Shown here in pieces: positions 18,001 to 24,000 of a DNA stretch of 64,000 bases. Made by a program: the position numbers. Source of the DNA: Escherichia coli (GTDB lineage: Bacteria; Pseudomonadota; Gammaproteobacteria; Enterobacterales; Enterobacteriaceae); NCBI RefSeq assembly GCF_048403405.1, contig NZ_CP183129.1. One strand, given 5' to 3'. The number at the start of each line of letters is the position of its first letter. Positions within the stretch are counted from its first letter, which is position 1.

Positions 18001-21000
18001 TTCAGACATATTTGGGTTATCAATAATGAAAAAAAAATCCCTGAGCAGCTAAAAAATAAAAAAAATGTATATTTTGTTTCAAGGCAAAGTGATTTATACA
18101 TGCAATGTTTGGCATCATGTGAATTTTTGATAAATAATGTTAGTTTTCCTGAGTATTTTATAAGAAAGAAAGGGCAGCGATATTTAAATACTTGGCATGG
18201 AACTCCTATAAAATTTCTTGGAAAAGATATTAAAGATGAATTTTTAGCACATAAAAATGTGGCTAGAAATTTCCTTCACACAACACATTTACTTAGTCCT
18301 AATACACACACAACTAATATTTTATTAGATAGGTATGATATATCTAATATATTTAGTGGGGAAATTAAAGAGTTAGGTTATCCTCGCATTGACCGGACTA
18401 TTAATCTTAGCTCTGAACGGAAGGAATATATACGTAGGAAAATTAATGCGAACGTTTACGATAAAGTAGTCTTGTATGCTCCAACTTGGAGAGGAATACA
18501 TGGAAAGGCAACTTTAGATATAGAAAAACTAAAGAACGATCTTGAAAAGTTGGCTGACCAGGATTGTCATATCGTTTTCCGTGGTCATCATATGATCGAA
18601 AAATTAGTAAGTGAGCAGAATATTTCTGGTATAACAATTGTTCCTTCTGAGATTGACACGAATGAGTTACTAGGGGCGATTGATATTCTTATCACAGATT
18701 ATTCAAGTATTGCTTTCGATTTTTTTGTAATGAATAGACCAGTAATTTACTATGCGTATGATATTGAGCAATATAATAATGAGAGAGGGTTGTATTTTCC
18801 TCTAAATGAATTACCTGGAACCGTTTGTTTTAATGATGTAGAGTTACTTAACACGTTAAGTGGATATCTTCGTAATGAAATATATTTCGATGCATCTAAA
18901 GGTATTGATAAGTTTTGTAAAAATGATGATGGAAGTGTATGTGGAAAAGTAATTGAATGGTTCTTCTTTGAAGAAAAATCCATATTGCTTAATAAAAACA
19001 AAAATAAAAATATACTTTTTTATATTGGTCCATTTATTCCAAATGGTATATTGTCATCATGGCTAAATCTTATATCGGTAATTGATCGTGATAAATATAA
19101 TATTTCTTTGGTTGTTGACCCAAAATTAATTCATGGTTTTCAAGAACGGTTCGAGCAGTTTAAGAGAGTCTCTCCAGATATTCAAGTCATTGGAACTTGT
19201 GGAAACATGCTTTATAATATTGAAGAGAAATGGCTTAATGATAAATTAAATAATCAATTCACCCTGGCAAGTAAGGAAATGTATGATATTCTTGATCATG
19301 CTTACCAACGAGAGTTTTTAAGGCTCTTTGGCTATAGTCATATTGATCATCTAATCCATTTTGAAGGTTATAATCAATCTTGGGTTATCCGGTTTGCTAA
19401 TGCTCCGAAAGATACAGTTAGAAATAAAATAATATTTCAACATAATGATAAGTTGAGCGAGTGGAGAGAAAGATTTCCATATCTTAGAGTTGTTTTTGAT
19501 TTTTATAAATCTTACAATAAAATTGTTTCTGTTTCTGAAAAAACGATGGAGTTGAACAGAGATAACTTAAGCGAATTTTTTAATATTGAGCATGATAAGT
19601 TTATTTATTGTGATAATGTTCAGAATCCAGATGAGGTGATTAAAAAATCTGATGATATTGATACAAGTGGATTTATTTTTGAAAATGATAAAATCTACTT
19701 TATAACTTTGGGCAGACTTTCAGTCGAAAAAGATCAACAAAAGTTGATTAATGCCTTTTGCAGATTACAAAAATTATATCCTAATATTGAGTTATTAATT
19801 CTTGGAGACGGCCCCCTCAAGATTGATTTACAACGCCAGATTATAACTTTAGGACTTGAAAAATCCGTACATCTTCTGGGACGCATATCAAATCCTTTTC
19901 CACTGCTAAAGAGAGCTGACTGTTTTGTCCTCTCTTCAAATCATGAAGGGCAACCTATGGTTCTTTTCGAAGCAATGATTCTAGATAAACCTATAATATC
20001 AACTGACATTACTGGTTCTAGAAGTGCTCTTGAAGGGCGTTCTGGTGTATTAGTTGAAAATAGTGTAGACGGTCTCTTCAACGGAATGCGGGACTTTATC
20101 TTGGGAAGGTTGGAGTTTAAACATTTTGACATTGAATCTTATCAAAAAAATGCTTTGTCGATGTTTTATGAAAAATGCCTTCATTAAAGCATTAATCTAT
20201 ATCATGATCGTCAAGAACCATTGATTGATTTGTAAGGAGGTATACCTCCTTACAAATTAAAGTAAATTTAGTTAAGTTAATAAATAATTATGAATAAGAC
20301 AGTTTTACATATTAACAGTAATATAACCACAGATGAAATTAGTTTATTGTTGCAGGCATCCAAGTATAAATATATTCATTTTGAAATAATTGGGAAAGGT
20401 GATTCATGTAAAAATTTAATTGAGTTTTCATATCATGATTATAATAAAAAAAAACAATTAATTGCTTTAACTAATGCTGGTTTTATGTCGTACGTTCATC
20501 GTGGAAATGTAACTTCATTGGTTCACTTTGATGAGATAAAAAACCTCTGGATTCCAGTAAAAGAAAAAAAGTTTTCTATTAATTCTGATGGGATTGTATA
20601 TACGTTACAACGGGCTGCATGCAAAATAAATGAAAAGCTACTGATTGTTTTCTCTCAGATGCCAATTGAACCATATTCTGCAAGCTTGTACAGATATTTT
20701 GCAAAAAACTTTTCTACAATTGATAAATATATTGGAAAAAATGTTTCTATATTAAGAGTGGCTGATATCGGAGGAATTACTGGCTCATTTTACTTAAATA
20801 CAAATGCATTACCAACCAATGCTGATAAAATTAAAAGCCTTATATTAGAAGTTATTGAACAATGTCAAATAAAATCAGATGATGTCGTACTTTATGGATG
20901 CTCAAAAGGAGGTACGGCAGCCGTTTATCATGGATTAACTAATAATTATAAAATAGTAGCGGTGGATCCTATATTAAATGATGAACATTATATAAATAAT

Positions 21001-24000
21001 AAAAATGATCTACATTTAATAGAGGGAGTTTTTCCTCAGCCAAAGGAAGAGTTATTCAAAAAAGTCATTGATGACTATTTAATAAACTATAAGGGGAATA
21101 TGTCTTATTTTATTGTTTCACAAAATTCGGAACAGTACAAATATATTATGGATATTATAAATCCAATCATCACTTATTCAACAGTTGCAAATAGCATCAA
21201 TGATAAAATTAAAAGCCATCCTGATGTTGGGCCACAATCAATTCATATGATTGTAGCAATGATTAATATGGCTCTTTCTGGAATAAAACTATCTAACGGC
21301 ATCTATGATTTTGTTTAAATAATATGGCTTTAAGATTAAATTCTGTTTTTATACTTGCGGTGATTTGCAGTATCCAAATTTGTAGCGCTGCTATTTTAAG
21401 TAAAAGCTATTCACATAATGATATTCATATCACTCTGCCATTATTATTTAATGAGTACGATGATGTACTCAGTCAGTATGACGGGGCAAAATATTTATAC
21501 CCTAGTTCATTTGCTCTTGATGATGATAATAATATTTATATTCAGTATATTTTTGAGCCAAAACAAAAGGATAATATATTAGTTTGTTATAATAAAAAAG
21601 GAAATTACCTTGGGTACTATAAGATACCAAGTGGTGGGCGAGGCGGGGCTGGCGAAGGTTTGGCTATTATACAAGACTATAATGGGTTTAATGTTGTATA
21701 TGTCGTTTCGAATACGGGAACCTTGCAAAGATATAATATGGTGAGTAGCTTGTATGGTGACAGATTATTTAAGGAAAGAGATTTTTCAATTAATGCTTTT
21801 AACCAATTTTCGATGAGTCAAGACTATTGGCTTATTGAAGGTTATGAAAGCGAAAGAAGTATAAAGTATAGTAGAAATAGACTTGAACTATATTCAGTAA
21901 GTGGAGATTTATTAAGAGTAATTTATTTACAGAATAATTATTCTGGATATATTGTATCAGATGCGAGTCCTGATGCAAAGAATTATAATAAAAGACAAGG
22001 GATAGCTTTAGGTGATGGTTTTTTTGTTGCTAGTTATGGTGCCTTTTACTATTCCAAAATGGAAAGTACTTATAATACATATCAAGGCATTAGAGTTTTT
22101 GATTTTTCCGGAAAGCTTTTATCTGAAAAAATTTTCCATCCAAATGAAATGATGAATGTTCTCAAAAAAATGGGCTTAACAGTTTCTAGAATTGAAAATG
22201 AGGGAGTGATAGTCAAGAATAATACTATTTACAGTATGTATATTTATAGTGATAGATACCATCATAAAACCTCCAGAAGTGAAGGGATCATTATTCTACT
22301 GGATGAATTTACTCAATAAGAAATCAGACGAGTTTTCATTATATAAAAGTGATATGTTTATATGGTAAAATAATTATATGAACTAAATATATAGGAATAT
22401 ATTTTTATGAGTCATATAGTTATAAAAATAAGGATTCTTGAAGGTAATGCTTTTATTCTACGTTGATAATTTAGAATAAATTATGATATTGACTTTGATC
22501 CAAACAAAAAATCTTTATTCATACCCAATGCATTCTCAAATTTTACTCCTCCATAATAACCCCCATTAACCTGCGTCTTCACCAATAAATACCCCCGAAA
22601 CTTCTTAAACAGTTTCATGTCCGGTTTAAAATCGGCCTGCCAGAACTGGTGCAAATGCCCTTGATACGTCAAGCCTTTGATGTCGTACAGGGCATTGCCC
22701 ATCACTTTGAGTGGTTTGTTATGAATCAGCGCAGAGATCCCCGCCGTACTGTTAATCGTCACTACCGCTTTTGCATGGCGTAATAATTCCGGCATCGGGA
22801 GATCGTGCACATAAATGACTCGCTCATCTAAGCCATATTCCTTACTCAATCGCTTAATTAATGGTCGATAGAGTCTGTGACCACGATCCATCGGATGATG
22901 TTTGATCACCAAATAACTTTCTTTCGGCGCTTTACGTGAAAATGAGTACATGACTTCATTAATATAGTCACGCACATCGTTATAATTACTGTGGTTACGA
23001 ATCTGGCTATCGTTATACACCTGCAAAACGGCAAGATAATAACGCTGATCCAGCTCATTCATTAACCTCGGCAATACCTTGCGCTGTGTTACCTTGTAAA
23101 GTTGCTTGCGCCAGTACGCACGAACCCAGCAACGTGCTTCATACCAGGGGGAAAATGATTTGTGGTGGCGGTAGCGAGGGAACTCATGACGGTAATGCCA
23201 GCCCATCAGGTAATACCACATCGCATGGCCAATGCGTTTCATCGTTGAAGGTTTTAAGTTCTCAACGTGCGGCGCAGGCATATCTGGCAACTTACGATAA
23301 AAATCCGGATCGCGCGGTAGCGAGGAATATGCGTTCACTCCGCCTTCTTCAACGGTTATAAATTGCGGGCGTAAATATCCTTCCTCAAATGCCAGAAAGC
23401 GGATCCCTTTCGACTTTGCCCAGCGTTTTGCTTCTTTGTGCAATGGGCGGCAGTCACCAAAGCAGAGGATGGTATCAAAGTCATATTGCCGGTGGAGAGC
23501 CCGTAACCATCCGGGAAACTCTTTCGGCGTTTGGTAGTAAGCCAGGTATTGTCGATGGCGGCAGTAAAAACGATCCCCGCCGTTGAAGACAACATTCACA
23601 GCGTTACGGCCTAATGACTCTAACCATTCGGCGACGTCATTGAAAAAAGGTCCCATCGGTCCCTGCAATAGCAGATATTTTTTACCCGATAATAAAATGG
23701 TTAGTGCGTTGCCTTGCATAAATAATCTGTGTAATAGTCAACTATGAAATTGTTTAGCCAAATCTGACCTTGCAGAACATAATTAATTTGCGGTAATAGC
23801 GTATTACCCGCCCCGCTTTTTTTCGGGTAATAAACATCGGCTTACGCGGCGTCTGGATTAAATATTCCGCAGCTTCCTCAACCGTAATAGGCTGTAGCCG
23901 TGTTGGGTGAATATATGTTGGGTAAACAATCAACGCCTGATAGATCAAGTCTGCTATCGTTAATCTGCGCTCGCGGCGCGGGCAATGATGTTCATCAACG

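Follow-up and report, generated by a model that had tools for sequence, protein, structure and literature searches.

The 64,000 nucleotides analyzed here (hereafter the window), which are part of contig NZ_CP183129.1 in the Escherichia coli assembly GCF_048403405.1, contain a kps locus for a group 2 capsule, namely K2 as in E. coli CFT073. Region 2 of this locus comprises five genes, and the last two, termed c3693 and c3692 in the numbering of CFT073, are the subject of this study (Table 1). c3692 is a cellular relative of the receptor-binding proteins of phages but not a tail protein, and its N-terminus predicts export via the Sec pathway. c3693 is a putative O-acetyltransferase of the K2 capsule, an assignment that family membership and structural modeling render highly probable. 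On balance, we favor the reading in which c3693 acetylates the capsule and exported c3692 recognizes and possibly processes the K2 polymer, the two being a serotype-specific pair of accessory proteins. The fold family of c3692 is known but its setting is new: a domain akin to those with which phages bind their receptors occurs as a secreted protein, encoded in a capsule locus beside TagF-like polymerases. No description of a c3692-type protein was found in the literature searched. Likewise, the typing paper that annotates the open reading frames of K2 (the kTYPr paper) mentions no propeller or phage-like protein in its text or in the supplements available as text.

A preliminary description of the window had placed two unassigned genes for proteins of 342 and 331 amino acids (aa) at positions 20290-22319, and both open reading frames were recovered at exactly these coordinates. 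The word "unassigned" does not hold for the 342-aa gene (c3693), as RefSeq names its product an XcbB/CpsF family protein and a 2026 paper regards the gene as that of a putative acetyltransferase (PMC13171606). The acetyltransferase identity of c3693 has thus been proposed in print already, and our analysis confirms it rather than introduces it.

Export signal, fold, and predicted pocket of c3692

The signal peptide that the preliminary description had read at the N-terminus of the 331-aa protein is borne out by the features of the sequence and by their conservation, both of which support export. The N-terminus of c3692, MALRLNSVFILAVICSIQICSAA up to the predicted cleavage site and Ile immediately after it, possesses one basic residue, a 12-residue stretch with a Kyte-Doolittle mean of 2.75, and small residues at positions -3 and -1. 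A signal-peptide-like N-terminus was found in all of the 20 stand-alone cellular members of the family, namely c3692, 12 orthologs encoded in capsule loci, and seven further homologs. No second hydrophobic segment was detected in the stand-alone cellular relatives of c3692 inspected.

In the structural model of c3692 (pLDDT of 84.9 and pTM of 0.84), an N-terminal helix precedes an all-beta propeller of five blades, and the closest fold is the receptor-binding propeller of the phi11/P68 type. Structure prediction and fold comparison had been suggested in the preliminary description, which foresaw an alpha/beta-hydrolase for c3693 (see below for the details) but not a phage-type propeller for c3692. 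The protein consists of the signal peptide and the propeller alone, and a virion anchor, a stem, a tower, and a chaperone domain are all absent. Across the 13 c3692 orthologs, which are 35-56% identical, 60 residues are invariant and the hydrophobic N-terminus is variable. No match to c3692 was retrieved from Pfam, from NCBIfam, or, with either the single sequence or a profile, from the PDB sequences. On the other hand, the Foldseek search against AFDB50 retrieved the CFT073 protein itself, E. coli tail proteins termed "Peptidase S74," and prophage tail proteins of Bibersteinia trehalosi, together with the proteins termed "Teichoic acid biosynthesis protein C" and "P68 RBP/TagC-like beta-propeller."

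The residues of the propeller that are conserved in phage tail proteins delineate a candidate ligand pocket. Across 120 long phage tail proteins, Q225 and E291 are kept in 100%, E293 in 99%, K223 in 98%, G294 in 95%, E111 in 87%, and R184 in 83%. Local profile alignments paired Q225 of c3692 with Gln330 of Gp45 of phage phi11; they further matched the GG-x-G segment preceding E111 to the part of Gp45 around Thr211, and the YP-x-x-F motif to the part around Gln165. These three polar residues of Gp45 line the cavity proposed as its receptor site. As the conserved residues of c3692 align with this cavity, a ligand pocket shared between the two proteins is predicted. Note that the comparison of the c3692-family profile with Gp45 yielded no significant E-value.

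Neither the family signatures nor the acidic catalytic residues of the five-bladed glycoside hydrolases (GH43, GH32, GH68, GH62, and GH159) were found in c3692. Five-bladed propellers are typical of furanosidases, and K2 is reported to contain galactofuranose (title of Fischer 1982) besides galactopyranose. We put little weight on the idea of a furanosidase because polymers without furanose are also targets of the domain. No protein resembling UDP-galactopyranose mutase was recognized among the five products of region 2 in the NCBIfam scan.

Phage tail spikes related to c3692

The phage relatives of c3692 were revealed by an exhaustive phmmer search, which yielded 179 sequences, and the 120 long proteins were aligned. 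A word-indexed protein search had returned just 13 relatives and missed the query itself. c3692 and c3693 share one cluster at 90% identity (1762 members with c3693 as the representative), which is probably an artifact of clustering and the likely reason why c3692 escaped the word search.

Apart from the orthologs in capsule loci, most of the relatives are 500-1400 aa in length and carry the propeller in the middle, and the flanks of the propeller in the long relatives were identified as tail-spike and tail-fiber modules by PHROGs. By tblastn, the propeller domain was found in 38 phage genomes, which include Kayfunavirus (36.8% identity), other phages of E. coli and Salmonella (approximately 30%), Erwinia phages, and 20 Staphylococcus phages. 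Among the long proteins, the nearest to c3692 is P0071, a tail spike that belongs to a P22-like prophage module and is encoded beside holin and lysis genes; P0071 matched residues 34-327 of c3692 with 39% identity and an E-value of 4e-65. P0071, EcoIv41_Bia, and other E. coli prophage and Kayfunavirus spikes with a Peptidase_S74 C-terminus resemble c3692 across the whole propeller (30-39% identity) but, unlike c3692, begin with a virion anchor and possess a stalk at the C-terminus as well as a chaperone domain. In the receptor-binding proteins of the staphylococcal phages phi11 (Gp45, PDB 5efv) and P68 and in Gp17 of phage NF5 (9m7x), the domain resides within trimeric tail proteins equipped with a stem and a tower. 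In contrast, c3692 stands alone, possesses a signal peptide, and is encoded in a Gram-negative capsule locus.

Two annotations of these phage proteins deserve comment. The tail proteins with the propeller in a set of E. coli/Salmonella phage records (H30-H32, H35, H36, and H40; e.g., PV029541.1 and MT862763.1) are annotated as "endo-N-acetylneuraminidase." This label was probably carried over via the C-terminal Peptidase_S74 chaperone domain, and the central propeller domain of these proteins is not a sialidase. In gp113 of Staphylococcus phage vB_SscM-1 (L009, 1663-4482), residues 1-447 match the phage tail protein of PDB 9euf, deposited as "GP-PDE domain-containing protein / ORF58," and the propeller occupies the C-terminal half. 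The propeller appears to have been swapped in for the GP-PDE domain at the same position of the tail protein, given the location that we infer for the GP-PDE domain in 9euf.

Association of the propeller with K2-type polymers

A chimeric query composed of P0071 and c3692 identified 18 complete E. coli genomes with the P0071 tail spike. As many as 16 of the 18 also carry c3692, against a background of 142 in 5426 genomes (Fisher p of 3e-24, a value that overstates independence as several of the 18 represent the same strain or clone). Nonetheless, at least two lineages of K2 alleles are found among these genomes, as are isolates from humans, dogs, and cattle.

Distantly related, secreted propellers adjoin other TPR-Glyphos_transf-GT4 polymerases in two types of loci (P0095 in L011 and P0161 in L016). 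These loci encode a hexapeptide-repeat acetyltransferase (10735-11466 in L011 and 6333-7058 in L016) in place of the XcbB/CpsF protein. Thus, the propeller associates with the polymerase and not with a particular type of acetyltransferase. According to the titles of published references, the capsules of B. trehalosi T15, Actinobacillus pleuropneumoniae 9, and meningococcus H are made of the same polymer as K2ab, and the propeller domain is carried by the prophage tail proteins of B. trehalosi.

c3693, a probable O-acetyltransferase of K2

c3693 matched the NCBIfam family NF033892 (XcbB/CpsF) over profile positions 1-290 of 291 with 299.4 bits and an E-value of 2.6e-89, the curated cut-off being 125 bits. 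A full-length match (E-value of 4e-53) was obtained with PDB 9hvz, 9hwh, 9hwi, and 9i87. This group of entries was deposited as "XcbB/CpsF family ..." with acetyl-CoA (ACoA) in one entry name, and no publication on 9hvz was found in our literature search. XcbB/CsxB of Neisseria meningitidis X and the 9hvz protein belong to the same NCBIfam family as c3693.

The GCSKG nucleophile elbow pointed out in the preliminary description corresponds to residues 203-207. G203, S205, K206, G207, D226, D240, and H310 are invariant in 24 family members, which are 31-65% identical to c3693. In the AF2 model (pLDDT of 91.1), S205 is located between strand 199-204 and helix 206-218, the position of a nucleophile elbow, and His310 follows the last core strand (297-302). 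D226 and D240, both invariant, are the candidates for the acid of the triad. All of the top matches of the model in the Foldseek search against PDB were alpha/beta-hydrolases, and no signal-peptide-type hydrophobic segment was found in c3693. The protein is, as modeled, a cytoplasmic protein of the alpha/beta-hydrolase fold.

The top Foldseek match, Gap2/Asp2 (PDB 6oyc) of the accessory Sec system, is an O-acetyltransferase and also gave weak Pfam and TIGRFAM matches around the elbow of c3693. However, the substrate of Asp2/Gap2 is the GlcNAc of a glycoprotein, and c3693 scored far below the thresholds of the Asp2 family (PF16929 and TIGR03712; 17.5 bits with an E-value of 0.0023, and 19.1 bits against a cut-off of 210.75). 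Another parallel is CsaC (SacC) of N. meningitidis A (PDB 6yus), a capsule O-acetyltransferase of the alpha/beta-hydrolase fold in which Ser114 forms the acetyl-enzyme and His228 and Asp198 complete the triad (PMC7501274). c3693 and CsaC have in common the fold, the location in a group 2 locus, the phosphodiester-linked polymer, and the GxSKGG elbow (GCSKGG of c3693 aligned with GSSKGG of CsaC, which contains Ser114); by analogy, a double displacement via acetyl-serine is plausible for c3693. The two proteins differ in that c3693 is approximately 90 residues longer and has an extra N-terminal alpha/beta domain, and the match between them is marginal (E-value of 0.012). The extension of CsaC bearing Gln138 aligns near D226-P227-I228 of c3693.

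Genetic data in the literature point to the same function. In the K2a reference strain, one inserted base was reported to shift the frame of what the authors call "a putative acetyltransferase gene," and the gene is intact in acetylated K2ab (PMC13171606). Two independent CFT073 mutants resistant to the podophage MLP3 bear +1 and -1 frameshifts in c3693 (Lys94fs and Phe95fs), with which the plating efficiency of MLP3 decreased approximately 10-fold (PMC8849078). These frameshifts lie in a homopolymer of seven A residues, which may be a slippage hot spot turning O-acetylation off; no variation in the length of this tract was seen among the 140 complete K2 genomes. Altogether, we regard c3693 as the probable O-acetyltransferase of K2 because of the family, the solved homolog listed with acetyl-CoA, the elbow with invariant Ser205 and His310, the fold, the K2a frameshift, and the phage phenotype. 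The suggestion in the preliminary description that the 342-aa protein is an esterase or an alpha/beta-fold O-acetyltransferase is thus well founded. In the proposed mechanism, which is modeled on that of CsaC, Ser205 would be acetylated by acetyl-CoA, after which a galactose hydroxyl on the finished poly(galactosyl-glycerol-phosphate) chain would be activated by His310, turning a K2a-type polymer into a K2ab-type polymer.

It is improbable, in our judgment, that c3693 acts instead as an esterase (de-O-acetylase) or in another capacity of the XcbB/CpsF family, such as priming or assembly, although several points can be raised in favor of such roles. The alpha/beta-hydrolase superfamily comprises mainly hydrolases, many of the Foldseek matches of c3693 are esterases and peptidases, the match to CsaC is weak, and CsxB (= XcbB) was considered a candidate for a transition transferase. 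The capsule of N. meningitidis X, the source of the name XcbB, is not known to be O-acetylated, so that membership in the XcbB/CpsF family does not guarantee acetyltransferase activity. The single published assay of CsxB cuts both ways: the lack of activity on Kdo acceptors weighs against our assignment, and the same failure to elongate these acceptors weighs against the alternative. The alternative is further at odds with the acetyl-CoA listed for the solved homolog and with the K2a/K2ab genotype tracking acetylation. Besides, a cytoplasmic esterase would have no substrate in a locus without an acetyltransferase.

Proposed function of c3692

We propose that c3693 and c3692 would serve as accessory partners of a teichoic-acid-like capsule pathway, with mature c3692 recognizing the K2 polymer outside the cytoplasm via the pocket of E111, R184, K223, Q225, E291, and E293. 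Homology and the context of the locus suggest that c3692 probably recognizes the poly(galactosyl-glycerol-phosphate) chain. The protein might further process K2 chains by trimming, releasing, or clearing them, like the periplasmic hydrolases and lyases of other exopolysaccharide systems. AlgL, BcsZ, and PslG are periplasmic, polymer-processing enzymes encoded in exopolysaccharide loci, and Wzi is an outer-membrane lectin for group 1 capsules. c3692 would resemble these proteins in being exported, being encoded in a polysaccharide locus, and acting on the finished polymer, but they differ from c3692 in both fold and export pathway. Nothing akin to AlgL, BcsZ, PslG, or Wzi is known for the ABC-transporter-dependent (group 2) capsules.

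Catalysis by c3692 on the K2 polymer is speculative and subject to considerable doubt. Three observations favor it: the propeller holds the position normally taken by the enzymatic domain in the Kayfunavirus and P22-like spikes, short-tailed phages of capsulated bacteria generally need a depolymerase, and the propeller apparently replaces the putative GP-PDE half in vB_SscM-1. A more far-reaching idea, which we hold to be rather unlikely, is that c3692 and the homologous spike domains constitute an undescribed family of five-bladed depolymerases for glycosyl-polyol-phosphate polymers, with which the bacterium trims, releases, or clears K2 chains and phages breach the capsule.

Several observations weigh against a polymer-processing role of c3692 or against its link to K2. 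The best structural relatives, phi11 Gp45 and the P68 fiber, are described as binders and not as enzymes. The E-x-E-G and Q-G motifs are present in Gp45 too and thus provide no argument for catalysis. The PHROG label "glycerophosphoryl diester phosphodiesterase" was rejected, as it stems from N-terminal homology to a different protein and is irrelevant to the propeller; the Pfam GDPD domain is absent from c3692 and from the labeled staphylococcal phage protein. The KpsMT-KpsE-KpsD machinery is believed to enclose group 2 capsules on their way through the envelope, and it is therefore hard to see where a periplasmic protein would meet the polymer. The association between the tail spike and K2 could reflect lineage or the O-antigen instead. 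Finally, no locus-encoded homolog of c3692 from Pasteurellaceae or Neisseria, in which the same backbone occurs, was found among the matches obtained, implying that c3692 is probably not needed for synthesis. No depolymerase for E. coli K2 was found in our literature search. The proposal in the preliminary description that the 331-aa protein modifies or degrades the capsule stands only in part: it gains from the homology to phage domains targeting teichoic-acid-type polymers, whereas non-catalytic binding fits the data equally well.

Such binding is the essence of the alternative in which c3692 is a non-catalytic lectin whose binding to K2 chains, either periplasmic or on the cell surface, helps to retain or guide the capsule in a Wzi-like manner. 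We consider this alternative unlikely. The closest solved relatives of c3692 are binding domains without known activity, the pocket residues are common to c3692 and Gp45, and a protein that is serotype-specific and encoded in the locus is what is expected of a polymer-specific lectin. On the other hand, c3692 has neither a membrane anchor nor a beta-barrel and thus no evident route to the surface. Moreover, podophages of capsulated bacteria usually need an enzyme, and the propeller occupies the position of the enzymatic domain, although the latter argument is one of analogy only.

The kinship with phage proteins opens two further explanations. c3692 could be a decoy, namely a secreted copy of the phage domain that occupies the capsule epitope and blocks adsorption; its export and its 39% identity to the spike of a prophage found almost solely in K2 genomes fit such a receptor mask. 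We nevertheless find this hardly probable, as a mask would be required in amounts matching a very abundant polymer and c3692 is in fixed synteny with biosynthetic genes across genera, not with mobile or defense genes. Besides, neither c3692 nor c3693 matched the anti-phage models of PADLOC. Still less credible, and in our view very improbable, is an origin of c3692 as a piece of a phage tail gene that was captured and plays no part in the capsule. The majority of the family are indeed phage tail proteins, but c3692 differs from them in its acquired signal peptide and in the loss of the tail anchor and the C-terminal domains. Against this explanation also stand the 60 residues invariant among such divergent orthologs, within a conserved cassette, and the independent secreted homologs in two other polymerase loci. 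In addition, c3692 matches its neighbors in region 2 in G+C content (approximately 30%). Across the listed K2 genomes, the gene shows 99.9% identity and carries an ordinary coding-sequence annotation, with no relaxed selection or frequent pseudogenes seen at that level.

Significance of the proposed accessory pair

Among uropathogenic and bloodstream E. coli, the K2 capsule is common; it was found here in O6, O2, and O25b-ST131 strains. As O-acetylation alters the antigenicity of K2 (K2a versus K2ab), knowing the acetyltransferase is relevant to typing and to vaccine work. The assembly of group 2 capsules has been described as solely cytoplasmic synthesis followed by export, and c3692 suggests that an extracytoplasmic step, such as trimming, shedding, retention, or phage interference, is missing from this scheme. 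Should c3692 be a depolymerase, its action would be the first report of processing outside the cytoplasm for any capsule that depends on an ABC transporter. c3692 is also a candidate for a K2-specific binding or degrading reagent, and ties the teichoic-acid-like capsules of Gram-negative bacteria to the receptor-binding modules of phages infecting Gram-positive bacteria.

Organization of the K2 locus

The stretch containing region 2 (7.9 kb) is 100% identical to those of the K2 strains CFT073, ATCC 25922, and THO-006, and is present in 140 of the 5426 complete genomes of E. coli, among which are strains of the types O6:K2:H1, O2:K2:H1, and O25b:H4-ST131. The same order of the five genes was found in Pantoea, Atlantibacter, and other loci. 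The coordinates of the features in the window are summarized in Table 1.

Table 1. Positions of the capsule locus, the genes of region 2, and the sites discussed in the text, numbered from the first nucleotide of the window
Feature	Position	Strand	Basis or remark
Region 3, kpsMT	13171-14675		Upstream of region 2
Region 2	14675-22319		G+C approximately 30% vs 50-55% in flanks
Glycerol-3-phosphate cytidylyltransferase (135 aa), TPR+LicD protein (411 aa, CpsC-like), TPR-TagF-GT4 polymerase (1266 aa, c3694)	14675..20187	+	NCBIfam hits
Perfect hairpin TTGTAAGGAGG-tata-CCTCCTTACAA, 11-bp stem, no T-run	20230..20255	+	Read from sequence
c3693	20290..21318	+	342 aa, ATG start
A7 homopolymer in c3693, codons E92-K93-K94	20564..20570	+	Read from sequence; site of MLP3-resistance frameshifts
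G203-C-S205-K-G207 codons of c3693, nucleophile elbow	20896..20910	+	Invariant columns, model position
His310 codon of c3693, candidate triad histidine	21217..21219	+	Invariant HP motif; D312 nearly invariant
c3692	21324..22319	+	331 aa, ATG start
Signal peptide of c3692, residues 1-23	21324..21392	+	Hydropathy/charge pattern; cleavage after Ala23 predicted by eye
Propeller domain of c3692, residues 34-327	21423..22304	+	Model strand pattern; part aligned to tail spike residues 187-480
K223-R-Q225-G motif of c3692, predicted ligand pocket	21990..22001	+	Conservation in phage tail proteins
R289-I-E291-N-E293-G294 motif of c3692, predicted ligand pocket	22188..22205	+	Conservation in phage tail proteins
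Region 1, kpsSCUDEF	from 22481		Convergent with region 2

The first three genes of region 2 correspond to CpsB, CpsC, and CpsD of A. pleuropneumoniae. In that species, these proteins are responsible for CDP-glycerol, for a linker of poly(glycerol-phosphate), and for the capsule of poly(galactosyl-glycerol-phosphate) (PMC11666461). The 135-aa product of the first gene (14675-15082) is named "pantoate--beta-alanine ligase" or "FAD synthase family protein" in RefSeq. Its best match is glycerol-3-phosphate cytidylyltransferase (TIGR01518, E-value of 2.7e-37), which is consistent with the pathway, and the RefSeq name is probably wrong. Region 2 of K2 encodes the CpsC-like LicD/TPR protein and no stand-alone, CpsA-like primer of the TagF family, the protein that puts the first glycerol-phosphate on the Kdo linker in A. 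pleuropneumoniae. The related locus L011 has an additional RgpF+Glyphos_transf protein.

The hairpin listed in Table 1 sits in the 103-nucleotide gap between the polymerase gene and c3693, where the terminator scan made no call. A role in mRNA processing or in attenuation, by which the core genes would be set apart from the accessory genes, is conceivable. The promoter and terminator scans of positions 20100-22600 gave no excess over shuffled controls. Just upstream of kpsM, at positions of approximately 8300-12060 in the window (L001, 2804-6458), the annotation of CFT073 has a frameshifted IS4 transposase and decayed genes for type II secretion, namely a partial gspK, a frameshifted gspL, and an intact yghD/gspM.

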